IMG/VR virus record: IMGVR_UViG_3300050026_000188
DNA: 47,912 bases
Source: a virus
Strand: one strand, 5' to 3'
Part shown: one piece after another, positions 1-47,912 of the stretch
Layout of the letters: every line of letters starts with the position of its first letter
Position numbering within the stretch: position 1 is the first letter of the stretch
The notes under the pieces: model-generated
Told to the model about the DNA's origin: nothing
The model's input: the letters and a program-made list of their open reading frames with translations, nothing else
Database searches by the model: none
Program-made: the position numbers and the translations under genes

Positions 1-77
1 GAGATCGCCCCCGCCGTGTTGAGGATGCTTGTCCCATCCGGCTTCACGCCTCCGAGCACGGTCGAAGTCGCCGTGGG
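1..77. repeat. Terminal direct repeat: bases 1..77 are identical to 47836..47912
   Basis: Exact 77-nt identity by direct comparison of the first and last lines of the window; a large minus-strand ORF reads through the junction in frame. Confidence 0.9.
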
Positions 78-907
78 TAGAACATAGGCAGATGGCGTCC
101 CACTCACCTGCGAGTAGGGCAGACTTAGGCTGGGCAGTGACGTAATCGCATTGGTGATATACCCGGAGGGATTCGCGGCGCTGTATGGGGTGAATCCCAA
201 AGCCGTCGTCACCATCGAGCCGGTGATGCCGCTGATGTACCCACTCGGGTTGGTTGCGTTGTATGGAGTGAATCCGAGTGCATTCTGCTTCCCATTGAAT
301 GCGGCCCAGTCAATGTGCGATAGGTAGCCGTCCACCGATGAAGTAGCCTGAGCCATCGCGCAATCTACGCTCGATCCGCTCGTCGTGCAATCCACCGGGG
401 CCGTGCCCGTGACCGCACTCAGCCCTCCGCCAGTTGAAGCCCCCCGCGCAACCATCGCGTTAGGGCTGGCAGTGAGCGTAAGGCTTACGCTGGTTGCCGT
501 GAACGTTCCCGAAGTCACGAATTTGATATGAGTCAGGCCGGCGAGATTGACTTGATAAAGCCCGTTCGCGGTCGCTGTCACGGTTGCGGTTGGGGTTGCG
601 CCTGGCGTTACCGCAGTGATTGGAATCGAGTAGTAAGTCGCTCCGTTGTCGCTACTCCCCAACACGGCGAAGGTTGCAGTTGTCAGGGAAGTTCCGGTTA
701 CAGCGATTGTCCCCGACGCGAAAGAGCTTCCGACGGTTGAGGGCACTACCAGGCCGTTGAGTTGAAATGGGGTACTGGTTTGCCCCGTGGCGGTAAAGAT
801 CTTCGCAGGGAAAACCGAATTGCTGTAAGGGCTCGCCAACTGAGCGCGAGCGGCGGGAGCCCCTAAACCAAAGCACAACGCGAGTGCGAGTAAAATCTTA
901 GTTCTCA
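1..907 (-). CDS. N-terminal part of a giant secreted tail-fibre-like protein (continues at 47835..44232 across the junction; about 1500 aa in total)
   Basis: ATG at 907..905 preceded by GGAGGG; N-terminus MRTKILLALALCFGLGAPAARA-QL looks like a Sec signal peptide; Gly/Thr/Ser/Ala-rich; repeated ALGFTPY..NPSGYI and ..VLGGVKPDG.. fibre-like motifs; frame continues into ORF 44232..47894. Confidence 0.6.
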
Positions 908-961
908 TTATTTGAAGCCCTCCGTTATTATTTATACGTTGCGGACTGATATTATGCATCC

Positions 962-1639
962 ATGAAGTTTTACGTTTACGCCCACAAAACGATATCCCCG
1001 CGTAAGGCGGGCGAGGTCTTTTATATCGGCAAAGGGCAGCGACGGCGCGCTTGGCTCGCAACTGGGCGCAATCCTCACTGGCAACGGGTTGCATCCAAGT
1101 ATGGATTCTCCGTCATTATTCTCGCGGACGGACTAAGCGAAAAGGCGGCTTTTGACCTAGAGAAGTCGATCATTCTCATTTGCGGCCGGGCGGCTCTCTG
1201 TAACCTTACAGACGGCGGCGAAGGCATCTCGGGTGCTTCGGAAGAGATTTGCCGGAAGATCAGCGAGCGTCACAAGGGTAAACCCAAGAGTGCTCAGCAT
1301 AAACAGAAAATAGCGGCATCGCATAAGGGGATTCGGCCATCAGAAGAAACCCGAGTCAGACTCAGAGCACGCCGACCGTCCGAAGAAACTCGCGCAAAAC
1401 TCAGTGCTTCTCAAAAGGCTCGCAATATAACCGCTCCCTCAGATTTTGCCGAGCGTAGCGCTTCCATGCGAAAGGCCGTTACTTGCTCCAACGGCATGAT
1501 CTTTGATTCGGTTAGTGCTGCTGCCACATGGGCTCGGAAGAACGGCTTCCCGAAAGCGGCTACAAGCAATATCAGCAACGTCTGTAATGGCCATCGCCCA
1601 TCAGCTTGCGGTGGCCTGACCTGGGCATTCGTCAAATGA
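962..1639 (+). CDS. GIY-YIG homing endonuclease with NUMOD3-like repeats
   Basis: N-terminal FYVYAH...GEVFYIGKG...R motif (GIY-YIG); twice-repeated SEETR..L (NUMOD3-like); free-standing immediately upstream of the large terminase. Confidence 0.8.
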   Translation: MKFYVYAHKTISPRKAGEVFYIGKGQRRRAWLATGRNPHWQRVASKYGFSVIILADGLSEKAAFDLEKSIILICGRAALCNLTDGGEGISGASEEICRKISERHKGKPKSAQHKQKIAASHKGIRPSEETRVRLRARRPSEETRAKLSASQKARNITAPSDFAERSASMRKAVTCSNGMIFDSVSAAATWARKNGFPKAATSNISNVCNGHRPSACGGLTWAFVK

Positions 1640-3099
1640 TTTCCATTACTGAGGACGAAACCGAGGAAGCCGCTGCCGAAGAGATATTCGCCCGTCGCAA
1701 CGGGCAGAAGACGATGTACGGGTATATCAAATACACGATGCTTGGTTATAAAACATCGACATTTGCCGAACGAGTATGCGCGGCGATTGACAAATTTATA
1801 ACTGATGTGCAAGCGGGCAAGCGTCCGGTTTTGATTCTTCAAGCTCCCCCGCAGAGCGGAAAATCTGAAATAGCTTCTCGCAAACTACCGGCTTATTTAC
1901 TTGGCAGGTTCCCCGATTGGCGCATTGCGGCTTGCAGTTATGGTGATGAATTGGCTGGAGCAATGGCGCAAGATGTTCGCCGAAATATCAACTCGCTTGA
2001 GCACCAAAAGCTATTTCCAGCCCCGGAAGAAAAGAAGAAATACGACGTAAACCGAATGGGAGATTTTACTGCGCCAGGTGGCACTGGCAGTTATTTGGGG
2101 GTGGGTGTCGGGGGCGGTCTTACTGGCAAGAGCGCGACCATTGGAATCATCGATGATCCAATCAAAAACGAAAAGGAAGCGCTCAGCGTTACAACTAAAG
2201 AGGGGCTATGGTCTTGGTATCAAGCTACTTTTACAACGCGGCTTTCCCAAAATTCAGGTCAAGTCATAATGGCTACATCTTGGGCGGTCGATGATCTGGT
2301 TGGGCGCATCATCGATCACTTCGCCGGCGATCCCCGTCTTACTCATTTGCGATTCCCGGCGATCAACCTGCCCGATGAAGTCGGATATAACCCCAAATTA
2401 CCAGAAGGTGCTCTCGTTCCCGAGCTTCACAGTCTCGAAAAACTATATGAGACTAAAGCTCTTTTTTCCGATTATTGGTTTTCATGCTTGTATCAGCAGA
2501 GCCCGAAGGCTCTGGGCGGCAACGTCTTCAAGGATTTTTGTATTCAGTATTACAACCCGAACGATCTGCCGAAGAAATTTGACAAGGTAATAGCGTCTTG
2601 GGATTGCACTTTCAAAGACACGGACGGGACCGATTTCGTAGTCGGGCAGGTATGGGGCAAAAAGGGAGCCAACAGTTATCTACTTGATCAGATCCGCGCT
2701 CGCATGAGTTTCAGCGTTACATGCAAAGCCATCGTTACCCAGAAACTAAAATGGCCGCAGATTCGCGAGGTGCTGATTGAGGACAAGGCTAACGGACCGG
2801 CAGTTATTGACGTGCTCAAGGCTCAGGTGCCTGGCATCATCCCGATTGAGCCCGACGGCTCGAAGCTCGCCCGCGCCCATGCGGTTACATGCTACTGGGA
2901 AGCGCTCAACGTATGGCTTCCTAATGAAGCTCTTTGCCCGTGGATAAAGGCTTACGTCTCCGAGATGACTACCTTCCCGGCGGCCGCCCATGATGATCAA
3001 GTGGATAGTACGACTCAGGCGCTCCGCCGGCTCTATCCCTTATTCGGAAGGCTCAAAATAAATCGGAATGCCATAAACAAGGCACTTGGGATAAGGTAA
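1636..3099 (+). CDS. terL: Terminase large subunit
   Basis: Walker A-like PQSGKSE, Walker B-like IGIIDDP, C-terminal nuclease motifs (ASWDCTF, AAAHDDQVDS); the ATG at 1636 overlaps the endonuclease stop (ATGA); the ORF track starts at 1606 with an alternative codon. Confidence 0.85.
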   Translation: MISITEDETEEAAAEEIFARRNGQKTMYGYIKYTMLGYKTSTFAERVCAAIDKFITDVQAGKRPVLILQAPPQSGKSEIASRKLPAYLLGRFPDWRIAACSYGDELAGAMAQDVRRNINSLEHQKLFPAPEEKKKYDVNRMGDFTAPGGTGSYLGVGVGGGLTGKSATIGIIDDPIKNEKEALSVTTKEGLWSWYQATFTTRLSQNSGQVIMATSWAVDDLVGRIIDHFAGDPRLTHLRFPAINLPDEVGYNPKLPEGALVPELHSLEKLYETKALFSDYWFSCLYQQSPKALGGNVFKDFCIQYYNPNDLPKKFDKVIASWDCTFKDTDGTDFVVGQVWGKKGANSYLLDQIRARMSFSVTCKAIVTQKLKWPQIREVLIEDKANGPAVIDVLKAQVPGIIPIEPDGSKLARAHAVTCYWEALNVWLPNEALCPWIKAYVSEMTTFPAAAHDDQVDSTTQALRRLYPLFGRLKINRNAINKALGIR

Positions 3100-3105
3100 T
3101 AATCT

Positions 3106-4614
3106 ATGACCTGGCTCCGTAATTTGTGGGATCGCTTCCGTAAGACACCCGCGCCGTTCTCAGTGACACCCGCCCCCGAACGTGGGGAGGGCTTAGCGCG
3201 GGCTCTCGCGAAGGCGAAAGAGACGGGCGGCCGCAAGAGCTATTGCTATCCCGTCAAGGCTCCCGATCTGATGCCCGGAGTTGTGCCCGCCACTGCGAAA
3301 TCTGGGATCGCGATGGATGCGAATTTCTCCGCGATGAATGGGGTACCAGGCGCGGCCGGCTACGCTTATGGTGATTCCGCCGGCTTCCCGGGATACCCCT
3401 ATCTCGCTATGCTCGCGACTCGCGCCGAATATCGGGCGTTTGCGTCCACCCTGGCGACAGAACGCACGCGGGAATGGATCGTGCTCAATAGCACGGATAC
3501 CGCCGGCGATGAGACGAAGACGAGGATCACCGAACTTACTCAAGCGCTCAAAGATATCAAACTGCAAAAGGTTATTCGGCGAGCGGCAGAGCAGGATTGT
3601 CTTTACGGCCGCGGGCAGATCTTTATCAAGATCAAGGGCGCTGATGACTCCCTTCCGCTCATCCTCAGCAATAAGACAATCAAAAAGGGCAGTTTCGACA
3701 GCGTTACGAATGTTGAGCCCATTTGGACAACGCCCAGCGCTTACAACGCTCTTGATCCAACGGCCGCGGATTTCTACAAGCCTTCTAAGTGGTGGATGCT
3801 CGGGAAGGAAGTTCATGCGAGCCGGATGATGACGATGATCACGCGGGAACTTCCGGACATACTCAAGCCCGCCTTCAATTTCAGCGGCATGAGCTTGAGC
3901 CAACTTGCAGAGCCCTATGTTGACAATTGGCTTCGCACGCGCCAGAGCGTCTCAGATCTGATCAATAACTTCTCAATCACTGCTCTCAAAACCAGCATGG
4001 GGCAAGTATTACAGGGCGGAGATGGACCGGACGCCGATGGTACCGATCTCTTTGAACGCGCCGATTTATTTACGGCCGGCCGAAGCAACAAAGGGCTCAT
4101 GCTGCTCGATAAGGACAGCGAAGAGCTAGTGCAAGTAAACACGCCCCTGGGCGGCCTGCATGAGCTTCAAGCGCAAGCTCAAGAGCAGATGTGTTCCGTT
4201 AGCCGTACCCCGGCGATCATCCTTACTGGCATCTCTCCGAGCGGGCTAAACGCTTCGAGTGAGGGCGAGATCAGCACATTTGAGGATTGGAACGCCGCTC
4301 TGCAAGAAGCCTATGATCGCGAGCCGATAGAAACAGTGCTCAAGGTTCTACAACTTTCGATGTATGGCGAGATTGATCCCGATATTACTTTTGCGTTTGT
4401 CCCGTTGCGGCAGATGACAAAGAAAGAACTCGCGGAGATCCGGACGGCCGACAGCACCACGGCCGGAACTTACATTGACCGCGGCGTGATCTCTCCGGAG
4501 GAAGAGCGCGAACGCCTGGCGCGAGATCCGGATAGCGGGTACCAGGGGCTAGATATGAGCCTTGAAATTGCAACTCCAAATGAGGGGAATACAGACAATG
4601 AAGACGATGAATAA
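3106..4614 (+). CDS. Portal protein (DUF1073-like)
   Basis: About 500 aa ORF directly after the large terminase; by-eye resemblance to DUF1073-type portals; acidic C-terminus. Confidence 0.65.
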   Translation: MTWLRNLWDRFRKTPAPFSVTPAPERGEGLARALAKAKETGGRKSYCYPVKAPDLMPGVVPATAKSGIAMDANFSAMNGVPGAAGYAYGDSAGFPGYPYLAMLATRAEYRAFASTLATERTREWIVLNSTDTAGDETKTRITELTQALKDIKLQKVIRRAAEQDCLYGRGQIFIKIKGADDSLPLILSNKTIKKGSFDSVTNVEPIWTTPSAYNALDPTAADFYKPSKWWMLGKEVHASRMMTMITRELPDILKPAFNFSGMSLSQLAEPYVDNWLRTRQSVSDLINNFSITALKTSMGQVLQGGDGPDADGTDLFERADLFTAGRSNKGLMLLDKDSEELVQVNTPLGGLHELQAQAQEQMCSVSRTPAIILTGISPSGLNASSEGEISTFEDWNAALQEAYDREPIETVLKVLQLSMYGEIDPDITFAFVPLRQMTKKELAEIRTADSTTAGTYIDRGVISPEEERERLARDPDSGYQGLDMSLEIATPNEGNTDNEDDE

Positions 4615-5128
4615 GAAGGTTTTGTTGGGGCTCATGCTGCTAGTTTGCGTCACGGTTGCTTTTGCCGCGGTCAACGTAAAAGGTTTGATCGTTGACGCGC
4701 TTACGGGCTACACAGTGGCCGGCGCTGCCCCGAATAACTACACACTATGCGGTAACGGGACCGTGGGCACTTACCAGGCGTCATGCGGCGCGGCGGCTCC
4801 TGTTCGCACTTGCAACGCTAACGGCTGCTATATCCGATACTCAGACGGTACAATACACGCCTGGGGAACGATCACCACGGCGTCATCAGGCGGAACGCTT
4901 TCGAGCGGTACGATCACTTTCCCCACGGCATTTACAACTGTCGTGCAAAGTCTGTTGGTTTCTGGACAGAGTCAACCTGACAGCACAGACGACGCATACG
5001 TTACTTACACGAAGAGCGGAACGACTAGCGGCGCTACCGTAGTAATACGGTGCTCCATCAACATTAGCGGATCTGGTTGCTCTTCACTAAACGCCGTTCC
5101 CGTTGGCTGGATAGCCGATGGATACTAA
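4598..5128 (+). CDS. Small secreted protein with an H-type-lectin-like C-terminal domain
   Basis: ATG at 4598 with GAGGGG upstream; MKTMNKKVLLGLMLLVCVTVAFA-AV signal-peptide-like N-terminus; C-terminal ITFPTAFTTVVQSLLV...VTYTKSGTTSGATVV...VGWIADGY pattern. Confidence 0.45.
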   Translation: MKTMNKKVLLGLMLLVCVTVAFAAVNVKGLIVDALTGYTVAGAAPNNYTLCGNGTVGTYQASCGAAAPVRTCNANGCYIRYSDGTIHAWGTITTASSGGTLSSGTITFPTAFTTVVQSLLVSGQSQPDSTDDAYVTYTKSGTTSGATVVIRCSINISGSGCSSLNAVPVGWIADGY

Positions 5129-5915
5129 ACCCACAGTTGTGCGTGCGGTACACGCCAACCGCGGCATCGCCGCTCTCTACCATCGCCGCATGATGGCTTT
5201 GATAGATGAGATGGACGCGAGCATTCTGCATTGGATCTCTGCGACGTACCGCCAGGCTCCCCCGCTACTCGCCCAGGACGCGAGCCCCGACTGGGAATAC
5301 AGCTTCGACGATCTGGGGAAGCGTTGGATCAAGCGCTTCGAGGATGCCGCGCCGAAGATCGCCGAAGCCTACCTCAAAGGGCAATTCAAGGCTACAGATT
5401 CCGCGATGCGCCAGGCTCTAAAAGATGCCGGTTGGACGGTCAAATTTGAGATGACTCCCGTGATGCGGGAAGCGTATGAGGCTTCGCTCGCTGAGAATAT
5501 CGGCTTGATCCGTTCGATCCCTCAACAGTATTTGCAGCAAGTTGAGGGAATCGCGATGCGGTCCTATACCGCCGGCCGCGACTTACAGCAGATGGTGACT
5601 GCCCTCAAGCGGCTTTACCCGAGAGCCGCTAACCGCGCCGTACTCATCTCGCTTGATCAGAGCAACAAAGCCAACGCAGTAGTTACCCAGGCGCGCCAGA
5701 CTGAGTTAGGGATCGTGGAATCCGTATGGATGCACTCGCACGCCGGCAAGACGCCGCGCCCTACTCACGTTGCCATGAATGGCAAGACGTACAAGGTAGC
5801 TCAGGGAATGTGGGATAGCGACGAAAAGAAGTGGATCTTCCCTGGAGAGTTGATCAACTGCCGTTGTACCGGCCGCTCAGTGATCCCCGCTTTCGCTGCC
5901 AGATCCGCTAAGTAA
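5118..5915 (+). CDS. Head morphogenesis protein (Mu F / SPP1 gp7 family)
   Basis: C-terminal GELINCRCTG motif typical of the family; position after the portal. Confidence 0.75.
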   Translation: MDTKPTVVRAVHANRGIAALYHRRMMALIDEMDASILHWISATYRQAPPLLAQDASPDWEYSFDDLGKRWIKRFEDAAPKIAEAYLKGQFKATDSAMRQALKDAGWTVKFEMTPVMREAYEASLAENIGLIRSIPQQYLQQVEGIAMRSYTAGRDLQQMVTALKRLYPRAANRAVLISLDQSNKANAVVTQARQTELGIVESVWMHSHAGKTPRPTHVAMNGKTYKVAQGMWDSDEKKWIFPGELINCRCTGRSVIPAFAARSAK

Positions 5916-5987
5916 CAAAGCCGTCAATAATATACGATAAAAATAACATTTGCAACTTGAAAATAATTGTGCAATGCTTTCCGTAAT

Positions 5988-7214
5988 ATGCCTCAGGATC
6001 TCAATCCCGCCGTTTCCGTAGCGCTTGACGCTTCGGCGCGTTCGTATGACGCAAACGGCCGGCTGCATATCAGCAAAACTCACATTACGAAGGCGACGGT
6101 AAACCCCTATTTCGGTATGGAGATCCCGAATAGCGCGGCTCTGGGGCTTGATCCTCAGAGGATTTATTATATGCTCCGTTCGCCCGAAGAGCTTGCGAAA
6201 GCCGCTCCCACCTTCGAGCGTATTCAAATTCTGATCAAGCATAAGCCGATTCTCAATACCGATCCCCCGAAGATGATCACGGTAGGGACAACGGGATCGG
6301 ATATCAGTTTTGAGTCCCCCTATCTCGACGCCGATGTATGTCTCTGGGATGAGACGGCTATCGCCGGTATCGAGACGAAGACTCTGCACGAATGGAGTTG
6401 CGCGTATCGCTACGTTGCCGTGATGACTGCCGGCATCTTTGAGGGACAGCGGTACGACGGAATTATGACCGATATTCAAGCCGATCATCTTGCAATCGTT
6501 GAGGATGGCCGTGCGGGAAGTGACGTAATAGCTGCAGATCAGGAGATCAAAATAATGCCGAAACCTACCAAACTGGGCACTGCCCTTATCGCGACTCTCG
6601 GAGGTATGTCCGCAAAGTTGGCGCTCGATTCCGCGCTCCCCACTTTGGTAGGGCAGGCCGTCAAGAAAACCTTCAACAAGGCCGACGTAAGCGCGAAGCT
6701 GATCGCGATGGACGCCGATCTCAAGCCCGCGGCGATCACCGCCGTTTTCGATTCGTTGCTGGCATTGGACGAAGAGAAAAAGGAAGTTGCCGAAGACGCC
6801 GACGAACATCCGAAGGATTGCGACTGTAAGGAATGTAAGAAAGTCGCCCAGGATGCCGCCGACGAAGAGGAAGAGAAGAAAAAGAAGATCGCTGAGGACG
6901 CCGAAGAGAAGGCAGAGAAGAAACTCGAAGGCGCAATGGACAGCTTCCGCAAGGATCTCCGCGCCGCGAACGAAGCCCGCATTGCCGTTCGGCCGGTTGT
7001 CGGCGATGTGATCGCCCAGGACTCAGCCGAAGAGATTTACGGCTTTGCTCTGGATCATTTGAAGGTTGACCGCGCCGGCGTTACTGGCGTGCCGGCTCTC
7101 AAGTCGCTCTTCACTCTGGCCCAGTCGCGCTCTTCCGCCCCCGTCGCTATCGCTCAGGACTCCGCCGGCGCTGCCGCCAGGTTCCCGAACGCGAGCCGTT
7201 TCCGTCAGGGATAA
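5988..7214 (+). CDS. Scaffold / prohead-associated protein (DUF2213-like)
   Basis: Position between head-morphogenesis and capsid genes; charged Lys/Glu/Asp-rich coiled segment (EEKKEVAEDADE...EEEEKKKKIAEDAEEKAEKK); likely ATG at 5988 (ORF track starts at 5967). Confidence 0.45.
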   Translation: MPQDLNPAVSVALDASARSYDANGRLHISKTHITKATVNPYFGMEIPNSAALGLDPQRIYYMLRSPEELAKAAPTFERIQILIKHKPILNTDPPKMITVGTTGSDISFESPYLDADVCLWDETAIAGIETKTLHEWSCAYRYVAVMTAGIFEGQRYDGIMTDIQADHLAIVEDGRAGSDVIAADQEIKIMPKPTKLGTALIATLGGMSAKLALDSALPTLVGQAVKKTFNKADVSAKLIAMDADLKPAAITAVFDSLLALDEEKKEVAEDADEHPKDCDCKECKKVAQDAADEEEEKKKKIAEDAEEKAEKKLEGAMDSFRKDLRAANEARIAVRPVVGDVIAQDSAEEIYGFALDHLKVDRAGVTGVPALKSLFTLAQSRSSAPVAIAQDSAGAAARFPNASRFRQG

Positions 7215-7273
7215 ACCGCAGAACGCCGCGCCTTTTTGTAACCGAAGCAAAGCAGTAAACCGGAGGACCAAAA

Positions 7274-8179
7274 ATGTTTCAGAAGTCCGTCAATCTTTAC
7301 AACCCGCTCGCAGTTGAGGGAGATTTCGCCGACGCGAATCCTCGCGCAACTGTACCCGCTGGGGAAGGCGGCCTTGTGGCCGGTCCCCTTGGAGTGACAG
7401 TCGGCCGCTTTGCCTGGGTTTCGGCAGACGGTAAGACAGTCACGAATTACGGAGAAGGCGCGGCCGCGCCGGATGGTTTCGTTCACCGCCAGGAAGGTGC
7501 AGCGCTGATTACTGCATACTTGGGGGAAGCGTCCAACCTGATCCTGGCTGGCTTCCCCGTCACTCTCCATAACGCCGGCAGTTTCTTCGCGAAGGCGAAC
7601 GGGCAGGCTTCCACTCTCCGCGGCTCGGTTTACGCGAGCTACGCAGACGGCTCCGTTTACATGGGCGCGGCTCCCGCCGGCTCGACTGCAACCGGCGCAA
7701 TCGGCGCAACGTTCACGGCGACGGGCACGGGTACCAGCCTGGCGGTCACTGCAGTAACCGGGCTGATCTCCATCGGAGACGTGATCTTGGGTACTGGCGT
7801 ACCTGCCGGGACCGCAATTCTCGCCCAGGTGAGCGGTCCAACCGGCGGCGCGGGAACGTATACCACCAGCGTTGCGACAACGGCAGCGGGCGTAACCGTA
7901 ACCAGCTTCGGCAACGTGCTCAACGTCTCCGCAGTTGCAACCGGCGTGCTCGCAGTTGGCGACGGCATTACCGGGACCGACGTACCTGCAGGCGCAACCA
8001 TCGCATCGCAGGTTAGCGGCGCGGCGGGCGGCGTGGGCGTGTATACGCTCAACATCCCGGCAACTGCTTACGCGGCTTCTACGGCGCTCACGGTTGCCGG
8101 CGGCGTCCTCACGAAGTTCGTAGCCAAGTCCGCTGTCAACGTCGGCGAGCTTGTCAAAATCTCAACGTGGGGGAACTAA
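7274..8179 (+). CDS. Head-associated structural protein with two internal ~45-aa Gly/Thr-rich repeats
   Basis: GDVILGTGVPAGTAILAQVSGPTGGAGTYT and GDGITGTDVPAGATIASQVSGAAGGVGVYT repeats; lies between scaffold and capsid genes. Confidence 0.35.
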   Translation: MFQKSVNLYNPLAVEGDFADANPRATVPAGEGGLVAGPLGVTVGRFAWVSADGKTVTNYGEGAAAPDGFVHRQEGAALITAYLGEASNLILAGFPVTLHNAGSFFAKANGQASTLRGSVYASYADGSVYMGAAPAGSTATGAIGATFTATGTGTSLAVTAVTGLISIGDVILGTGVPAGTAILAQVSGPTGGAGTYTTSVATTAAGVTVTSFGNVLNVSAVATGVLAVGDGITGTDVPAGATIASQVSGAAGGVGVYTLNIPATAYAASTALTVAGGVLTKFVAKSAVNVGELVKISTWGN

Positions 8180-8186
8180 GCCAGTC

Positions 8187-9218
8187 ATGGACCCAATACT
8201 CGTAGCGCTCGCAATGGACGCCGGCATTCACTTCATGGGCACGGAAGCCATGTTGCAACTGCCGAACGTGGCTCACAGCATCCGTGTCGCAATGGACGCT
8301 CAGCCGGCACTAATCACAACCAGCAACGCCGGTATCCCCGCGTTTCTTTCGACGTACATCGATCCCAAGTTGATTGAGATCCTGGTTGCGCCGATGAAGG
8401 CCGCGGAGATCGTCGGAGAGGAAGTCAAAAAGGGCGATTGGACAACGGATACAGCGATGTTCCCCGTTGTGGAATCAACCGGCGAGACTTCGAGCTACGG
8501 CGATTACAGCAATAACGGCGTGGCCGGCGCGAATACCAACTTTCCCCAGCGTCAGAGCTATCACTACCAGGTGATTACTCAGTGGGGCGAGAAGGAACTC
8601 GCGAAGGCGGCTCTTGCGAAAATCGACTGGGCGAATCGCGTCAACATCGCGAGCGTTCTCACCCTCAACAAATTCCAGAACAAGACGTACTTCTACGGCG
8701 TGGCCGGCCTGCAGAATTACGGCTTGCTCAACGATCCCAACCTTTACGCCCCCATCGCCCCCACCAACGAGGGCGGAAACATTACCTGGGCGAACAAGGA
8801 TGCTCTCGGGATCTACGCCGATATCCTCGCGCTCTTCACTCAGTTGCAGGCGCAGACCGGAAATACATCTCTGGTTGAGATGGATGCAAAGATGACGCTC
8901 GCGCTGTCTTCTGGCGCGATCGTCAACCTCGGTAAAGTCACTCAGTTCAACGTCAACGTCAAGACGACGATCAAGGATAACTTCCCCAACCTGCGAATCA
9001 TGACGGCTCCGGAATACTCGACAGCGGCGGGCAACCTTGTGCAACTCATCGTTGACGAAGTTGAAGGGCAGCGTACCGTTGAAGTCGCTTTCACCGAGAA
9101 ACTGCGGGCTCACCCGATTGTTATCGAGATGAGCGCCTTCAAGCAGAAGAAATCGCAGGGAACTTTCGGAAGCATTGTTTATCGCCCAATGTTTATCGCG
9201 GCGATGCTCGGCGTATAG
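8187..9218 (+). CDS. Major capsid protein (DUF2184-like)
   Basis: About 345 aa ORF in the capsid position; GGGGGA before ATG at 8187; family assignment is by gene order and general resemblance only. Confidence 0.55.
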   Translation: MDPILVALAMDAGIHFMGTEAMLQLPNVAHSIRVAMDAQPALITTSNAGIPAFLSTYIDPKLIEILVAPMKAAEIVGEEVKKGDWTTDTAMFPVVESTGETSSYGDYSNNGVAGANTNFPQRQSYHYQVITQWGEKELAKAALAKIDWANRVNIASVLTLNKFQNKTYFYGVAGLQNYGLLNDPNLYAPIAPTNEGGNITWANKDALGIYADILALFTQLQAQTGNTSLVEMDAKMTLALSSGAIVNLGKVTQFNVNVKTTIKDNFPNLRIMTAPEYSTAAGNLVQLIVDEVEGQRTVEVAFTEKLRAHPIVIEMSAFKQKKSQGTFGSIVYRPMFIAAMLGV

Positions 9219-21767: not shown

Positions 21768-22336
21768 AAAATATAGAGCAAACCATCATTTCGCAGTACG
21801 GCAATAGCCCAGCTCTCACCGCGCTCATTCGTAACATGAACGAGTACATCCGGGTGGATGCTGATATCGACGGATTCTTCGACACGATTTGGAATGTGGA
21901 AACCGCCGTGGGCTTAGGGCTAGATATCTGGGGCAGCATCGTCGGCCTTCCGACCGGCCGCTATATCTACACCGAGCCAGTCACGGTGTTGAATGACGAT
22001 CAGTTTCGCACCCTCATTCTCATCAAAGCTCTGAGCAACATCTCGATTACAAGTTCCCCCAGCTTCAATCAAATGCTGAATATCTTCTTTGCTGGGCGCG
22101 GGCGCTGCTACGTGAGTGATCAGGGCTCCATGCAGATGCGGTATACCTTCGAGTTCCCACTGGAGCCTTGGGAGATTCAAGTTATTTCGGAGCCTGACAT
22201 CTTACTTAGGCCGGCTGGAGTGGGTGTTACACTCGCCATAATCGATTACCCGGTGTTTGGATTCTCCGAAGCAAATAGCCCCAAGTTTACGGGATTCAAT
22301 CAGGCACCCTTTGTTTCGGAGGCGATAGTAATCTAA
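21764..22336 (+). CDS. Baseplate/tail protein (gpI-like)
   Basis: About 190 aa following the J-like gene, start overlaps its stop. Confidence 0.45.
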   Translation: MKNIEQTIISQYGNSPALTALIRNMNEYIRVDADIDGFFDTIWNVETAVGLGLDIWGSIVGLPTGRYIYTEPVTVLNDDQFRTLILIKALSNISITSSPSFNQMLNIFFAGRGRCYVSDQGSMQMRYTFEFPLEPWEIQVISEPDILLRPAGVGVTLAIIDYPVFGFSEANSPKFTGFNQAPFVSEAIVI

Positions 22337-23148
22337 TGCTCTTAGCCAGCGCACCATCAAAAGTAGTTGAAGCTTTCGCAGCCGGGGGCGGCAAGAATGT
22401 AATCCCAGTGCCTTCGCAGATTGGCATTACTCCCGGCGCGGCATCATGGACTGACGGATTCCCACCACTCACTCGTACTGATCCGATTGCTGGTGGTGTA
22501 GGCCCGAGCGGTCTGGATATGAATGGGGCACTCAATGCCATCTCAGCTCTGTCCATCTGGTACAACGCTGGTGCTGGCTTCCCCTACGATGCCGTATTCT
22601 CTGCGACCGTTGGCGGCTACCCAGCGGGGGCGCGAGTCCTGCAGGCGAGCGGCGCGGGCTACTGGCGGAGTACGGTCGATAACAACGTGACCGATCCGGA
22701 CACCGGCGGCGCGGGCTGGGTACCGGAGGGCGCGAGCGTGCTATCAAGCGTCTACGCTTCTGCTCAGCAAACGCTCGCCCTGGGAACCTCGAAGATCCTC
22801 TTCGATACCGTCGAGTTCGATGACGGACTCTGGGATGTGACCGATCATCGCTTCGTTGCCCCCTACGCCGGCCGGTATCGAGTGGCCGGCTCTGTGATGC
22901 TCGCCGCCCCTGACGGGCAGCTTCTAGCGACTCAGATCTTCAAGAATGGAGCTATCGCAAAACAATGCTTTCAGGCTCCCCAGGTGAGCGACGGAAATAT
23001 GAGCTTGCCCTTTGATGCCGTGCTCAACCTGGCGGCCGGCGATTACCTCGAAGCATTCCTTGTAGCGCCAGGCGCGGCCGTGCTCGCCGGGCAGGTTGGG
23101 AGCAATCAGGCATATGTATTTGCTCAGGCTGAATATCTCGGCACATAA
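22336..23148 (+). CDS. Tail fibre protein with C1q/TNF-like C-terminal domain
   Basis: N-terminal PSQIGITPGAASWTDGFPPL fibre-type motif; C-terminal FDTVEFDDGLWDV...YAGRYRVAGSVML...LAAGDYLEAFL jelly-roll-like pattern. Confidence 0.6.
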   Translation: MLLASAPSKVVEAFAAGGGKNVIPVPSQIGITPGAASWTDGFPPLTRTDPIAGGVGPSGLDMNGALNAISALSIWYNAGAGFPYDAVFSATVGGYPAGARVLQASGAGYWRSTVDNNVTDPDTGGAGWVPEGASVLSSVYASAQQTLALGTSKILFDTVEFDDGLWDVTDHRFVAPYAGRYRVAGSVMLAAPDGQLLATQIFKNGAIAKQCFQAPQVSDGNMSLPFDAVLNLAAGDYLEAFLVAPGAAVLAGQVGSNQAYVFAQAEYLGT

Positions 23149-37824: not shown

Positions 37825-38457
37825 TCATTTGCTCACCCGCTTTAGAAATAATGCCTTCTGACGTTCAATAGCCGCCGAGTACGCCGCCCAGTACGCCGAG
37901 TCCGCCGCCGAGTCCGCCGCCGAGCGCGCCGCCGAGCGCGCCGCCAAGCGCGCCGAGTACGCCGCCGAGTCCACCGCCGAGTCCACCGAGTCCACCGAGT
38001 CCACCGCCGAGTTCGCCGAGTCCGCCGCCCAGTACGCCGAGTCCGCCGCCGAGTCCGCCGCCGAGTACGCCGCCGAGTACGCCGCCGAGCGCGCCGCCGA
38101 GCGCGCCGCCGACTTTTTATCTTCTAACTGAGCAAGCGTAATTTTTCCGTCCATAAAATCGCTCGCGGCTTGCAGCGCTTCGCGAGGGCGCTTGTCGTCA
38201 GGAAACGCCTTCTCAAAATTACCCAGAACTTCCATTGCAAAATCAACAGAGAGTAAAACGATGGCTCGCTTACAGGGCTCCGTAGTCGCTCGCATTGCCC
38301 AGATCGCATGATCTAAGCCGTTGGATTTGAGGATGCGTTTTAGACTGATTTCTTTATCGTCAGTCCACTTGGAGCCGAGTGAAGCTGTCAGAGTTTGTAA
38401 TCCAGCAGAGCAGGCGTTTGCCTTGTGAAGTAGAGCGAGCGTGGTTTTGAGCATCAT
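37825..38457 (-). CDS. Protein with a C-terminal SAA(R/Y/D) tetrapeptide repeat array
   Basis: ATG ATG at 38457 with AGGAGG upstream; non-repetitive N-terminal domain of about 110 aa, then SAARSAARSAAYSAAYSAADSAADSAYW... repeats. Confidence 0.45.
   Translation of the reverse strand: MMLKTTLALLHKANACSAGLQTLTASLGSKWTDDKEISLKRILKSNGLDHAIWAMRATTEPCKRAIVLLSVDFAMEVLGNFEKAFPDDKRPREALQAASDFMDGKITLAQLEDKKSAARSAARSAAYSAAYSAADSAADSAYWAADSANSAVDSVDSVDSAVDSAAYSARLAARSAARSAADSAADSAYWAAYSAAIERQKALFLKRVSK
37871..38112. repeat. GC-rich 12/9-bp tandem repeat array (GCCGCCGAG + 3 nt) inside a coding region
   Basis: About 20 consecutive units readable directly in the sequence. Confidence 0.85.
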
Positions 38458-38483
38458 TGTGAGCGCCTCCTGAGCGCTGATAC

Positions 38484-38512
38484 AGAGTATCAATTTACTA
38501 GTAAGCTGTCAA
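38484..38512 (-). promoter_or_regulatory. Promoter-operator cassette copy 1
   Basis: Minus strand: TTGACA - 17 nt containing TTACTAGTAA - TACTCT, then leader with AGGAGG. Confidence 0.4.
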
Positions 38513-40435: not shown

Positions 40436-41335
40436 ATGACACCCAATAACTACCCCGTAATTACACCGCTAGCCATTCGGGGTAATTCTAAGCGCCCGTT
40501 TGCATTGTGGATGCCCGGCGCGGTAATGTGGGAAGCCAGGGATATGCTCAGTGATCGTCAAAAACGTTTCGTCTTCCATCAGGCTCGCATTACTGATGGT
40601 GCAAAGGCTTACGTATTGGCAGGTTACAGCGAGCAGGGAGCGGCTCAAGGCGCTTCGCGTCTGTTACAGAACGTTGAGATACAGGAAGCTATAGAGGTTG
40701 AGCGGGCGGACCTGGCCCGTGTCGCGAGCCTGAGCCCCGAATGGGTTTTGAATCGATGGATGTTGATCGCCAGCGCGGACCCGAGAGATCTGATCCATAC
40801 CCGCATCGGCTGCTGTCGGCATTGCTGGGGCATTGATAACAAACGGGAATGGATGGAACACGAATACGCTACCGCGCTCAACGAAGCTCTGACTTGCATG
40901 TTGCTGCCGCCGGCCTTCGAGGGTGGCCTAGGGTACTCGCCGACTCGCGAGCCTAACCCTGACTGCCCTAAGTGCAAGGGCGAAGGCTTGCCGCGGACCT
41001 GGCTCGCCGACTCCCGCAAGCTGAGCCGTTCGGCCGCGGCTCTCTTCGCTGGCGTAAAGCAGACGAAGGATGGGATTGAGATCAAGATGCACGATCAGCC
41101 CGAAGCGCTCAAGTCGCTCGCCGATTACCTGGGGATGCAGAACAAGAGCAGCGCCGATGTAAAGCTGGCTGCGGCTCTGGTGGTGGGCGGGAGCGCTAAG
41201 GATCTCTCAGACGATGAGCTTGCCGGCATCATTGAGCGGGGGCGGTTGCGGAGGGCTCGAGCTGCGACTTTGGGGGTATCTGCGGGGGTATTATCGCCGG
41301 CGGCGTTGCCAAGTAAGACAATCGAGGGCACTTAG
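40436..41335 (+). CDS. terS: Terminase small subunit-like protein (SPP1 G1P / Terminase_2-like) with Cys-rich insert
   Basis: LSDRQKRFVFHQARITDGAKAYVLAGYSEQGAAQGASRLLQNVEIQEAI...RVASLSPEWVLNRWMLIASADPRDL matches the small-terminase N-terminal pattern; CCRHC / CPKC cysteines. Confidence 0.65.
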   Translation: MTPNNYPVITPLAIRGNSKRPFALWMPGAVMWEARDMLSDRQKRFVFHQARITDGAKAYVLAGYSEQGAAQGASRLLQNVEIQEAIEVERADLARVASLSPEWVLNRWMLIASADPRDLIHTRIGCCRHCWGIDNKREWMEHEYATALNEALTCMLLPPAFEGGLGYSPTREPNPDCPKCKGEGLPRTWLADSRKLSRSAAALFAGVKQTKDGIEIKMHDQPEALKSLADYLGMQNKSSADVKLAAALVVGGSAKDLSDDELAGIIERGRLRRARAATLGVSAGVLSPAALPSKTIEGT

Positions 41336-44231: not shown

Positions 44232-47200
44232 CTAGTTACCAATGCAAATATAGCGAATTGCGTCACTACCTAAACCGCCATCATCTGAAAATGTCACCGA
44301 CGATCCACTTGTGTAAGTAACTCCCAGTGCGTTAAGATTGATGGTGCTGACTGTTGCGCTCGTCATACAGGCATAAGAGGATGAACTGGTAAATATGGCT
44401 GACCCGCTAAATGTCACCGTTGCAGCACCACCAGAAAGCGTCGTCAAGCCCATCACTGTGTGCGCAGATGTCAGTTGCGTCCCGGCGGCGTTGTAGAGCG
44501 TTCCACCAGGGCACCCCGTCCCATCCGCAAGGCAGTGGGCTTCTGGTACTCCGCTACCATTCAAGTCTGTGCTGCCCGCTCCTGCTGAAGATACACCTGT
44601 GCTACTTACTTGAAACTGGCTACTTGAACCAACGGATAGCAACGCCGCTGGCGAAGTCGTCCCGATGCCGACGTTGCCTTGGAAAATACCTCCACCTGTT
44701 CCAACCCACAGACTCTTCCAACGTTGGCCCGTAACCCCAAGGTTAATCGTATTATCGAAGGCGGGGGCCGGATTAAGACCAGTTGCGGTTAATTGCATTA
44801 CATCCTCATAAGCTGGGGAACCCGGCAGCTCAAAAGCGAGCGTGGTATACGTGCTCTGCGCACCAATCCTTAAAACATTATAGGTGCTGTCCAAATATAT
44901 AAAGGCTGGCGGCGTCTGCCCATTTATTACGATTGGGTTGGCAAAGACTGTAGGATTTCCGGCGATAGTCAGGCCGCCCGTGCGCAATGCGCCAGTGCCA
45001 AGATCAAGAGCCTGTACAGGGCTCGTCGTCCCGATACCGACGTTGCCGTTATTATCTATCCTGACCTTTTCCGTTGGTCCACTAAGACCATCATTTTGCG
45101 TGAGAAAACGAATCTGCGATAGTGTATTTTGCGAACCAGATACGATGTCAAGTATTCGTGCATAGATGCCTGCCGTTGGGAAATTTTGAGCTTGGTAAAA
45201 ATTGAAAACACCTTGGTCACTAATACCATATGTTCTTAAATTAGTATCAGTAGACGGATTTCCCAAAGACAACTGCCCACTCGGCCCCGTCGTCCCGATG
45301 CCGAGTCTATGATTCGTCGCATCCCAGAAGAAATTGGAATTGTCTTGTGCGATGGTTGAGCCATTTGAGAACAACACGGAGCCAGAGGTTAGCGAAGGCA
45401 AAGTGAATGTCCCGTAAGTATTTGTGTCCAGCGCAAACGTCCCTGCTGCCGTCATCTTTACGAATGGTGTGCCCGTAGTCCATGTCGGATAATTCAACGC
45501 GCCCCATGTGCCTACGGAAGGCAGAGCCGTGCATCCCCCGCTGGACATCAATGCGCCAGAGCAAGAGCCGGAACCAAACAGCGCCGTTATATCGCTGTAT
45601 AGCGGAGTGCGCCACGCCGTGTTCCCACTATTCGCCACGCCAATCGTGTTTGCTCCGGGGTAGGTCATGGTACTGCCCGGAGTCTGCCATCCCTGAGCTG
45701 TTGCCCCAGAGTTCATCCCCCAGACTTGGTTTGCCGTGCCGTTGGTGCTGAGGTTTGTGGCTGTGGATGAGTTGCCAGTAAAAGCGGCTCCATGAAGTGT
45801 CGCTAATCCGGCTGCACTACCGAAGTATTCATCAGTTACCGCAGCATTGCCAATTACTGCTGTGTTGGAACCTGCTCCAACTGCCGTCGATCCTACTACA
45901 ATTTCGTTTGTGTTACCATTCGCACTTGCCTGTGTGTTCTGCCCCAGGAAAGTCCCGTAGCTACCCGTTATATTATGATACCCAGTAGGAAGTAAAGTTC
46001 CTGCTAAATAGCCCGCTGCTGTATTACCATTGCCCGTAGTAGTGAACTGAAGCGCCCCACTTCCAATTCCGGTACTGTAACTCCCAGAAGAGTTTGTAGC
46101 TAGGGTATTATTTCCGATTCCTATGTTATTGCCCCCACTTGTAAGATTGTAGAGGGCAGAGTCCCCTAAGCCTATATTGTTACTACCTGTCTCTATGCCA
46201 CCGTAACCTATTGCCTCAGCACCTATCGCGATATTGAATGATCCAGAGGCACCAAGTAGGTTTGATGTACCTATGGCAATGTTCACTGTGCCGGTAGAAC
46301 TTGCTAAAGTGCTACTATTACCGATGGCAATCGAACTAGCTCCTCCATACGTCAAGGGCAAACCGCCCCCTAAATTCAGATTAGAAGATGGGATGGTATA
46401 AATTGCGACCCCACTATCCTGAACCTGGTCCCCTGTTCCGGTAAAGGTTACGGCATCATTGGCGGTTGCGCTGCCGGGTCCGGTGACTGGGTTGGTAAGC
46501 GCGAGTTGGAAGTCCGTAGCCGCATGAGTCGCCGCCGTCCCTACCGTTGTAGAACAGCCGCTCGCTCCGTTGCTCAGATCGCCACATGCTGCTTGACTGA
46601 ATGTTGCGCTGCCGTTCGACTTGACCGCGCCTGTCACGGCCCCCGCGTTGTCCGCCTTCGTGCCTTGTGCCGCCGTGGCATAAGCCGTGGACGCGGTGTA
46701 AGCCGCCGACCCAACCGCACCGCTGCCAAGCAGCACCGAGCCACTTCCATAGGTACTTAGCTCGCCCAGCACGCCGCTGTTGTTGTACTCGATGTGGCCA
46801 GTCGTGCCACCCGCAATCGTCGTGGTGCCTACGGTGATCGTTCCAGCAGATGCGGATATGGTACAGGTTCCACCCAGGGCGCAGTTCTGGCCGTTGACCG
46901 TAGTCACCGAGTTTGCTAAGGCTGCGTTCGGTACCGCCTCATACGTCACCGTGTTCGTACCGGTCACTACCGGTACGGTGTTGGTTGAAGGGCTGGAACC
47001 GTAGCTAACTCCATTCACCACTGCAACCGTGGGAGTTGCGGTCGTCACTGCTGTCAACTGCCCCGCTGCGTTGTAGGTGATAACTGGTATCGCTGTCGCG
47101 CTTCCCGTCGGCCCTGCCGCCGTAATGACCCCACCCGAGGGGACGTGGCTTGCCGATGTGCCGATAGGGAGGTAGGAATAGCCCACAGTCCCAGACGAGA

Positions 47201-47912
47201 TGTTGCTGGCGTTGGAGGCGTAAGTTTCAGCATTCGATTGAGCCGTGGAAGCTGCGCCAGAAGCATCATAGGCCGTTGATGCGGTAAACGCCGCAGTACC
47301 AAATACGCCCCCAGCCGCAGTCGTCAGATAGGAAAGCGTCGTTACGGTTGGCGCAACCGGAGTGTAGGTCAACGCGGTAGTCACCTGGCCAGAGGTCATG
47401 CCGGTTAGGTTCGCCATACTGAAGGTCGGTGCCGCCGTGAAAGTCGGAGCCGCGCTGCTGCCGGTGAAGTTGCCAAAAACGGTGTTCGCCGCCTGATTCT
47501 TGAGTGTTGCCGTGACCGTTCCGCTGGTTGTTACCGCTGTACTCGGAGTCGAACTGTCCACCGTGCCATCGCCCGTGAAGGTCACGCTGCTTACGCTTCC
47601 CGTAGATGTTCCGCACGTTGGGCAAGAGATCGCTCCCGTTGCCGCGACTACAATTGGGAGTGTTCCGCTCAGTCCAGCCGAACCAACCGAGCCGATGGGA
47701 ATGCCAGTCGGCAGATAACTCACTCCAATGGTTCCAGTGTTGATGTGGCTGGCATTCTGCGCGTAAGTCTCGGCATTGCTCTGAGCCGTTGCCGCCGCAC
47801 CGGAAGCATCCGCTCCCACACTTGCCGCTGTTGCCGAGATCGCCCCCGCCGTGTTGAGGATGCTTGTCCCATCCGGCTTCACGCCTCCGAGCACGGTCGA
47901 AGTCGCCGTGGG
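44232..47912 (-). CDS. C-terminal part of the giant secreted tail-fibre-like protein (N-terminal part at 907..1)
   Basis: ORF is open to the window edge and matches 1..77; A..S..A..S fibre-type repeats (TAQSNAETYA.NAS twice); several N.GIGTTSP motifs. Confidence 0.6.
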   Translation of the reverse strand, partial: PTATSTVLGGVKPDGTSILNTAGAISATAASVGADASGAAATAQSNAETYAQNASHINTGTIGVSYLPTGIPIGSVGSAGLSGTLPIVVAATGAISCPTCGTSTGSVSSVTFTGDGTVDSSTPSTAVTTSGTVTATLKNQAANTVFGNFTGSSAAPTFTAAPTFSMANLTGMTSGQVTTALTYTPVAPTVTTLSYLTTAAGGVFGTAAFTASTAYDASGAASTAQSNAETYASNASNISSGTVGYSYLPIGTSASHVPSGGVITAAGPTGSATAIPVITYNAAGQLTAVTTATPTVAVVNGVSYGSSPSTNTVPVVTGTNTVTYEAVPNAALANSVTTVNGQNCALGGTCTISASAGTITVGTTTIAGGTTGHIEYNNSGVLGELSTYGSGSVLLGSGAVGSAAYTASTAYATAAQGTKADNAGAVTGAVKSNGSATFSQAACGDLSNGASGCSTTVGTAATHAATDFQLALTNPVTGPGSATANDAVTFTGTGDQVQDSGVAIYTIPSSNLNLGGGLPLTYGGASSIAIGNSSTLASSTGTVNIAIGTSNLLGASGSFNIAIGAEAIGYGGIETGSNNIGLGDSALYNLTSGGNNIGIGNNTLATNSSGSYSTGIGSGALQFTTTGNGNTAAGYLAGTLLPTGYHNITGSYGTFLGQNTQASANGNTNEIVVGSTAVGAGSNTAVIGNAAVTDEYFGSAAGLATLHGAAFTGNSSTATNLSTNGTANQVWGMNSGATAQGWQTPGSTMTYPGANTIGVANSGNTAWRTPLYSDITALFGSGSCSGALMSSGGCTALPSVGTWGALNYPTWTTGTPFVKMTAAGTFALDTNTYGTFTLPSLTSGSVLFSNGSTIAQDNSNFFWDATNHRLGIGTTGPSGQLSLGNPSTDTNLRTYGISDQGVFNFYQAQNFPTAGIYARILDIVSGSQNTLSQIRFLTQNDGLSGPTEKVRIDNNGNVGIGTTSPVQALDLGTGALRTGGLTIAGNPTVFANPIVINGQTPPAFIYLDSTYNVLRIGAQSTYTTLAFELPGSPAYEDVMQLTATGLNPAPAFDNTINLGVTGQRWKSLWVGTGGGIFQGNVGIGTTSPAALLSVGSSSQFQVSSTGVSSAGAGSTDLNGSGVPEAHCLADGTGCPGGTLYNAAGTQLTSAHTVMGLTTLSGGAATVTFSGSAIFTSSSSYACMTSATVSTINLNALGVTYTSGSSVTFSDDGGLGSDAIRYICIGN

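Follow-up and report, generated by a model that had tools for sequence, protein, structure and literature searches.

A predicted exported mini-fibre with an exchangeable foot domain, encoded between the portal and head-morphogenesis genes of uncultured myoviruses

We analyzed a 47,912-nt stretch of viral DNA (IMG/VR record IMGVR_UViG_3300050026_000188; this whole stretch is hereafter called the window) and focused on a small gene, designated gene X, that lies between the genes for the portal protein and a Mu-F-like head-morphogenesis protein (Table 1). Behind a predicted signal peptide, its product carries a cysteine-containing variant of a tail-fibre shaft repeat and a C-terminal domain of the kind that forms the distal 'foot' of R-type pyocin fibres. 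Among related uncultured phages, the gene keeps its slot and the C-terminal domain is exchanged as a cassette. From these features, we infer that the protein is exported, oligomeric and able to bind glycans, and that the function of its family is most plausibly to bind or mask the host cell surface. The foot domain itself has been described before, but database names and literature searches gave no account of its combination with a signal peptide and a fibre repeat as a swappable tip, of the fixed slot or of the family.

A tail-fibre foot domain on a small protein

Gene X comprises 177 codons including the stop codon and encodes 176 amino acids (aa); the original prediction had located this open reading frame (ORF) correctly, and its length of 177 aa counted the stop. 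We placed the start at position 4598 rather than 4607, because codon 4, which is Met in gene X, is Ile in the homologue P0001 (99% identical). Pfam assigned aa 82–176, corresponding to profile positions 3–84 of 84, to PF21882 (Gp53-like_C) with 29.2 bits against a gathering cutoff of 24.9 (E = 1.3e-6), and the named PHROG matches comprised tail-fibre families and one virion structural protein. Because this domain scores above the gathering cutoff, homologues occur in at least 67 clusters and synteny is strict, gene X is a real gene. A genome with a GC content of 56% does yield many long spurious ORFs in other frames; however, the Pfam domain, the confident fold, the ribosome site and the conserved architecture and synteny of the clusters exclude a chance ORF or a non-functional remnant, and we regard the probability of either as negligible.

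When a profile of the foot domain was compared with the PDB, the R1-pyocin fibre (6cxb, E = 1e-3) and AP22 gp53 (4mtm) were found. In the AlphaFold2 model of the gene X product, predicted local distance difference test (pLDDT) values were 86–94 over most of aa 70–176, and the N-terminal module was modeled weakly; as modeled, the C-terminal domain adopts the 4MTM/R-pyocin foot fold. The C-terminal domains of the LKA1 and phi297 tailspikes ranked lower and were followed by H-type lectins, namely discoidin I (6.1), SLL-2 (5.4) and Helix pomatia agglutinin (HPA; 5.3), at 14–21% identity. Matches in BFVD that bear functional names were all tail or tail-fibre proteins, except for one decoration-protein entry, and the C-domain profile also matched N-truncated fibre fragments (P0014-17).

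The pyocin foot has been published as a discoidin-like lectin domain that is proposed to bind core lipopolysaccharide (LPS) through variable distal loops (PMC6363177), and the foot of the gene X product shares this structural neighbourhood. The original prediction had recognized a C-terminal pattern resembling H-type lectins. No match of the gene X product to Pfam H_lectin (PF09458) was found at E ≤ 1, and an indirect link to these lectins is given by the homologue P0019, which matched both H_lectin (36.9 bits) and Gp53-like_C (16.6 bits). The description thus appears right at the level of fold or superfamily (discoidin I, SLL-2 and HPA) and wrong at the level of family (Gp53-like_C), and the profile comparison proposed with it placed the foot domains of phage and pyocin fibres at the top of both the sequence and the fold matches, with H-type lectins ranking lower. 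Here, Gp53-like_C is carried not by the tip of a baseplate fibre but by a 176-aa protein with a predicted signal peptide in the portal/Mu-F slot.

A predicted signal peptide followed by a fibre-repeat module

The gene X product begins with MKTMNKKVLLGLMLLVCVTVAFA/AV, where the slash marks the predicted cleavage site (AFA/AV). Its n-region (MKTMNKK) has a charge of +3, its h-region (VLLGLMLLVCVTV) consists of 13 uncharged, hydrophobic residues, and small residues occupy positions –3 and –1, which conforms to the pattern for Sec export and signal peptidase I (SPase-I), namely a charged n-region, a core of 7–15 residues and small residues at –3/–1. When every start codon in the six frames of the window was scored crudely, gene X reached 4.44, compared with at most 2.84 elsewhere, and the signal-peptide-like N-terminus noted in the original prediction was thereby borne out. 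AlphaFold2 modeled residues 6–19 of this region as a helix. The lipobox ([LVI][ASTVI][GAS]C) is absent from gene X: the residues before Cys17 are L-L-V, and the family does not conserve this cysteine. No twin-arginine motif was found in the N-terminus. Despite sequence turnover, the signal-peptide architecture was kept in 67 family representatives, with the cleavage-site variants AFA/AV, AFA/QV, LHA/QV, AAA/QV and ASS/VN, and the residue following the site was A, Q or S in 62 of 66 members. On these sequence features, export of the gene X product is strongly indicated.

Conservation within the family is highest in residues 24–66 (AVNVKGLIVDALTGYTVAGAAPNNYTLCGNGTVGTYQASCG), here called the N-module, in which C51 and C63 are invariant. 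An exhaustive search of 1.84 billion representatives with a profile of the N-module returned 143 matches, about 67 of which were small proteins carrying the module directly after the signal peptide. The remaining matches were large proteins of up to 4,053 aa in which the module is an internal repeat, and the core repeat, '(I/V)NA.TG(F/Y).v.GAA..G.YLRGNGT.FV', was present in up to 18 copies in one 3,232-aa protein. The giant repeat-bearing proteins include P0022 (3,232 aa), P0023 (4,053 aa) and P0024 (1,716 aa). Some of the large repeat proteins lie on viral contigs, one of them directly 3΄ of a baseplate-J gene. The repeat has no Pfam family, and a broader alignment of the N-module returned two fragments only in another protein-database search. 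Given a shaft repeat and a foot, the gene X product is built entirely of tail-fibre parts. Longer family members contain optional linker modules ('FYQT..NG..L.QR..LNF' and 'ATPTQCSGG.P.ATGIQANGNANC') that resemble fibre segments by eye.

The mature gene X product contains six cysteines in three close pairs (51/63, 72/77 and 152/161), and the number of cysteines in the mature part was even in 63 of 66 members (binomial tail 6.5e-16 against an even/odd coin flip). Such pairs point to extracellular disulfides rather than to export specifically, because true fibres carry them too.

A fixed slot and exchange of the C-terminal domain

The gene X family comprises at least 67 clusters at 50% identity, all of which are metagenomic and unnamed or annotated as 'hypothetical', and the clade is that of uncultured E217/AsaM-56-like myoviruses. 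In every locus retrieved, from at least nine lineages with portals 57–100% identical to that of the window and with divergent subfamilies included, gene X lies between the portal and Mu-F genes and usually overlaps both; the sole exception is a locus that ends just after the gene X homologue. In the locus of one divergent member (P0055; L033), an extra 46-aa ORF (654..794) lies between the portal gene and the gene X homologue. An 'HGN' subfamily was not found in IMG/VR, and searches of the window with tblastn and with a hidden Markov model (HMM) of the N-module detected gene X itself and no paralogue.

The closest cultured phages by portal identity are Pseudomonas Amjad_SA (63%), Orisa03 (58%) and Aeromonas vB_AsaM-56 (56%), and in all three the portal gene is followed directly by the Mu-F gene. 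In the comparison of related phages proposed with the original prediction, gene X was absent from these three and present in all uncultured clade members examined. No gene X was found in cultured phages by tblastn against 50,697 phage records or by megablast of window positions 3000–8200. The portal gene of Orisa03 (L012, 2270..4381) encodes 703 aa, the last ~200 of which resemble an ADP-ribosyltransferase toxin (YRG...STS...EKEVLL), and the portal/Mu-F junction thus carries cargo in cultured relatives too. We considered and rejected a portal–X fusion by frameshift, since no obvious slippery site was seen, gene X has its own ribosome site and the tail of this long portal is unrelated to gene X.

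We compared the window with five relatives (L009, L019, L032, L008 and L031) that are 72–91% identical in the flanking DNA. Nucleotide homology extends from the portal gene into gene X as far as codon ~55–63 (window positions 4761–4788), stops there and resumes at 5108–5145, at the start of Mu-F. These sharp boundaries indicate that the C-terminal domain is a replaceable cassette; the signal peptide and the fibre-repeat module are conserved, and the C-terminal domain is swapped. A diversity-generating retroelement was set aside as the source of this variation, which consists of whole-domain replacement, and neither a template repeat nor a paralogue was found.

The original prediction correctly placed gene X between the portal and head-morphogenesis genes and overlapping the portal stop (17 nt are shared), and it suggested a moron-type accessory gene inserted there. 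No promoter or intrinsic terminator of its own was found flanking 4598..5128, where the counts were at the shuffle expectation (the scan covered sigma-70-type signals only). The GC content of gene X is 0.54, compared with 0.56 for the genome, and at third codon positions (GC3) it does not depart from the range seen in the adjacent genes. Lacking its own promoter and terminator and showing no shift in GC content, gene X is not a classical moron, and the translational overlap on both sides and the synteny fixed across the clade (portals to 57% identity) also speak against that interpretation; it resembles a moron in that some related phages have it and others lack it in this slot. The absence of gene X from the closest cultured relatives and its apparent fold-level similarity to H-type lectins would agree with a recent acquisition, as a moron that is expressed autonomously and encodes an H-type lectin. 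However, the missing transcription signals and compositional deviation, the overlaps with both neighbours, the presence in all clade members examined and the missing H_lectin match largely refute this reading, and we consider it very improbable.

The virion fibre and a second fibre-like protein with a predicted export signal

The phage encodes a baseplate tail fibre that lacks a signal peptide. Over its first 126 aa, this fibre is the orthologue of gp81 of AsaM-56 (BLASTP, 34% identity, E = 7e-15), and its C-terminus bears a C1q/BclA-like knob (weak Pfam BclA_C match) instead of a foot, whereas gp81 ends in a foot domain (BFVD match H9C0Y1). Thus, the foot that tips the orthologous fibre of a relative sits here on the predicted exported protein, and fibres of PHROG 1396 combine an N-terminal part like that of the window's baseplate fibre with a C-terminal part like the gene X product. 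Since the baseplate fibre has no signal peptide, the gene X product appears to be additional to the virion fibre.

Positions 1–77 and 47836–47912 of the window are identical, which marks it as a complete phage genome with a unique length of 47,835 bp, assembled as a circle or with terminal redundancy. The gene for a 1,503-aa fibre-like protein spans the circular junction (908..1 joined to 47912..44232, minus strand), and the start of this protein, MRTKILLALALCFGLGAPAARA/QLASPYSN, is predicted to be a Sec-type signal peptide of its own. Giant genes of relatives, divergent from TerL, encode a signal peptide and a conserved N-domain ('SPYSNSVFP.KIFTATGQTG.PIQLNGL') followed by unrelated remainders (L031, 1209 aa; L005, 981 aa; L008, 452 aa and 841 aa; L010). 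The L005 protein matched an SGNH esterase with 32.4 bits, just below the Pfam cutoff of 32.9, and L008 matched Laminin_G_3. No counterpart was found in the cultured relatives; the large genes on the minus strand of Amjad_SA and AsaM-56 encode no signal peptides, and the one in AsaM-56 looks spurious. Given gene X, the 1,503-aa protein and its relatives, and no cultured counterpart, the export of modular fibre-like proteins appears to be a trait of the clade. In L031, whose portal is 70% identical to that of the window, a tyrosine integrase gene (1..175) adjoins the giant exported-protein gene (1417..5046), and the clade therefore includes temperate members.

The last ~100 aa of the 1,503-aa protein (44232..~44600, minus strand; '...ATVTFSGSAIFTSSSSYACMTSA...IRYICIGN') have the look of a diverged foot or H-type lectin by eye, and Pfam and hhalign gave no support for this. 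No tip shared within the genome was found when the foot profile was aligned with the C-terminus of the 1,503-aa protein by hhalign, the type-B tip profile did not match the 270-aa fibre by hhalign, and HMMs of the foot, type-B tip and N-module did not match the giant proteins of the relatives. The idea that the gene X product copies the fibre tip of its own phage is thus unsupported at the level of sequence, and the product has no sequence-level similarity to any other protein of the genome.

The gene X product might itself be part of the virion, for example a fibre of the neck, collar or head, either with a hydrophobic N-terminus that is not a signal peptide or with oxidative folding in the periplasm before the protein joins particles once the holin has permeabilized the inner membrane. 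A conserved N-terminal part with an exchangeable receptor-binding tip matches the architecture of virion fibres, as do the composition wholly of tail-fibre modules, the cysteine pairs throughout the family, the location in the head/neck structural operon with overlaps to portal and Mu-F, and the same design in the 1,503-aa fibre-like protein. However, tailed-phage virions assemble in the cytoplasm, and we know of no tailed-phage structural protein with a cleavable Sec signal. Moreover, a membrane anchor would need an h-region longer than 13 residues, the canonical site (AXA followed by Q/A) is conserved, the phage has its own baseplate fibre, which bears no signal peptide, and cultured relatives make virions without gene X; we consider this explanation improbable. 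A more specific version, in which the gene X product and the 1,503-aa protein are both virion fibres that form disulfides in the periplasm and dock after holin action through their conserved N-terminal modules, seems less probable still.

Another explanation takes the gene X product as an accessory lectin without an exclusion role, which binds the host surface or matrix and, together with the giant protein, binds or remodels exopolysaccharide or LPS; as variants, it might ease the release and dispersal of progeny or serve as an adhesin in lysogens (lysogenic conversion). The lectin-type tip is consistent with such a role, as are the companion exported proteins with near-threshold SGNH esterase (L005) or Laminin_G_3 (L008) matches and the arrangement in L031, where the giant gene lies beside the integrase gene in the same orientation, the classic position of a conversion gene. 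On the other hand, the gene X product has no enzymatic domain, gene X lies inside the late head operon and not near an attachment site, and the window phage has no recognizable integrase and encodes its own DNA polymerase, Gp2.5-like single-stranded DNA-binding protein and helicase. We consider this explanation rather unlikely and rank it second, behind receptor masking.

Proposed receptor masking by a predicted exported mini-fibre

We tentatively favour the reading that the gene X product is an exported, glycan-binding mini-fibre at the cell envelope with a role in receptor masking or superinfection exclusion. The product would be a Sec-exported, probably trimeric and disulfide-stabilized miniature tail fibre, composed of a cleavable 23-aa signal peptide, a shaft repeat of ~43 aa locked by one disulfide and a distal foot of ~105 aa. 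The foot is a discoidin/H-type-lectin-like jelly roll (Gp53-like_C); for R-pyocin fibres, this distal domain has been proposed to bind LPS and to determine specificity. Gene X is probably co-transcribed with the late head genes and coupled to them in translation, and after export its product may act at the cell envelope, with the tip binding a saccharide. The likeliest outcome would be that a surface receptor is occupied or masked, which could lead to superinfection exclusion or could spare progeny from loss on debris. The tip is exchanged as a cassette among related phages, as host-range determinants are. The second fibre-like protein with predicted export, found in the same genome and in relatives, supports this reading.

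Several points weigh against it. Export is predicted from heuristic features of the sequence, and the even cysteine count does not discriminate, since the phage's true fibres also bear cysteine pairs. In a diderm host, a Sec signal leads no further than the periplasm, and the targets of foot domains are usually on the outer surface; the hint that the host belongs to Acidobacteriota, taken from a Cys-variant module and 'AFA/QV' signal peptides in a metagenome-assembled genome (MAG), is weak. Exclusion proteins are typically expressed early or from prophages, and late expression coupled to the portal gene would be unusual. No functional match to exclusion families was found in PADLOC, NCBIfam or PHROGs, and no homologue ties the family to superinfection exclusion; PADLOC gave no match, and NCBIfam gave only sub-threshold matches far below the cutoffs, all but one of which were confined to the signal-peptide region. 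Finally, a conserved N-terminus with a variable C-terminus is equally the design of a virion fibre.

Host clues and other features of the genome

Profile scans of genome contigs gave one match, to a lipoprotein-like protein encoded on the chromosome of an Acidobacteriota MAG; this protein has only the Cys-variant module in common with gene X. Scans of metagenome contigs found nothing. The matching protein (L020, CAVTRS010000015.1, 4346..5704; 452 aa) contains a Cys-bearing variant of the fibre repeat (LCGNGTAYVDSPTCG), and by eye the domain after the repeat resembles the tip of P0006 and P0012. Other proteins of this MAG have 'AFA/QV' signal peptides like those of the gene X family. No tRNA was found in the window.

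The window phage also encodes a primase-polymerase, a ParB-like protein and a homing endonuclease. The homing-endonuclease-like ORF (962..1639, plus strand; PHROG 314, E = 3.4e-20) is situated between TerL and the giant gene that diverges from it, and extends across the TTG annotated as the start of TerL (1606). TerS (40436..41335) and TerL (1606..3099) are ~8 kb apart on the circle, and between them lies an inverted block with the giant exported-protein gene and a 131-aa gene. A putative Imm-5-like immunity protein is encoded at 37825..38493 on the minus strand (PF21805, E = 2.8e-9), with no obvious toxin partner adjoining it.

Table 1. Features of gene X, its neighbours and other fibre-like proteins in the window
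Feature	Coordinates	Strand	Basis
Gene X, predicted exported mini-fibre (stop included)	4598..5128	+	ORF/translation, Pfam Gp53-like_C, homologues, synteny
Predicted Sec/SPase-I signal peptide, aa 1–23, MKTMNKKVLLGLMLLVCVTVAFA/A	4598..4666	+	n-h-c architecture, AXA rule, family conservation
Conserved N-module, aa 24–66, Cys51/Cys63 variant of tail-fibre shaft repeat	4667..4795	+	Alignments A1 and A2, recurring motif
C-terminal 'foot' domain, aa 67–176	4796..5125	+	Pfam match aa 82–176; Cys pairs 72/77 and 152/161
Exchangeable cassette	4765..5107	+	Boundaries of blastn high-scoring segment pairs against L009, L019, L032, L008 and L031
Shine-Dalgarno-like GAGGGG	4582..4587	+	10 nt 5΄ of ATG 4598; sequence inspection
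Portal gene, upstream neighbour	3106..4614	+	Pfam Phage_portal_3, E = 4.7e-72; 17-nt overlap with gene X
Mu-F-like head-morphogenesis gene, downstream neighbour	5118..5915	+	Pfam Phage_Mu_F, PHROG 324; 11-nt overlap
Baseplate tail fibre, 270 aa, no signal peptide	22336..23148	+	PHROG tail-fibre families, BLASTP to gp81, weak BclA_C
1,503-aa fibre-like protein, C-terminal 1,220 aa	44232..47912	-	77-nt terminal overlap, reconstructed ORF
1,503-aa fibre-like protein, N-terminal part (MRTKILLALALCFGLGAPAARA/QLASPYSN...)	1..908	-	Homologous N-termini of relatives with signal peptides

Significance and comparison with known systems

Phage host range turns on receptor-binding tips, and here such a tip is detached from the virion, with a predicted export signal, a constant slot and cassette swapping across an uncultured clade. 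If receptor masking is true, the family would represent a new, modular form of competitor exclusion by mimicry of receptor-binding proteins, and the type of tip would report the contested receptor. If a periplasm-matured virion fibre is true, it would overturn the assumption that tailed-phage particles are assembled wholly in the cytoplasm, by a two-compartment route not previously known for tailed phages. In either case, the family, with at least 67 clusters, is a defined, testable target and a predicted source of small, soluble, disulfide-stabilized glycan-binding domains.

With the feet of R-type pyocin fibres (6CL6, 6CU2 and 6CXB) and AP22 gp53 (4MTM), the gene X product has the domain family PF21882 in common; however, its foot belongs to a 153-aa mature protein with a Sec signal, encoded in the head module, rather than to a baseplate-attached fibre, and the product has two extra cysteine pairs. 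The likeness to H-type lectins (PF09458), such as HPA (2CCV), discoidin I (2W94) and the octocoral lectin SLL-2 (3WMP), appears to be at the level of fold, with 14–21% identity; those lectins are eukaryotic, and the gene X product has no Pfam H_lectin match. XepA and YomS, from the Bacillus subtilis prophages PBSX and SPBc2, have been described as pentameric lysis-cassette proteins (PMC6834076). The match to PBSX XepA and SPbeta YomS (6I56 and 6I5O) concerns the type-B tip only and not the protein of the window, and reflects a generic TNF/C1q jelly-roll neighbourhood.

Morons of the HK97 gp15 type encode accessory membrane or envelope proteins within the morphogenesis operon and are absent from relatives. 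Gene X likewise lies inside a structural operon and is absent from relatives, and its product would be an accessory envelope protein, but the gene has no transcription signals or compositional signature of its own and is conserved and syntenic across the clade.

Cor of phi80 and N15 and Sp of T4 are small, envelope-targeted phage proteins with an N-terminal signal that act on the receptor or on the incoming phage. Llp of T5 is also a small phage protein that reaches the envelope by an N-terminal signal and acts on the receptor or incoming phage (PMC9586334; 2026 bioRxiv preprint), and its production is reported to occur shortly after infection (2026 bioRxiv preprint). The gene X product would be a functional analogue of these proteins only, as it has no sequence or fold relationship to them. 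Llp and Cor are lipoproteins, whereas the gene X product has no lipobox; Llp is early, whereas gene X lies in the late head operon. In contrast to Llp, Cor and Sp, the gene X product uses, and swaps, the tip of a receptor-binding protein.

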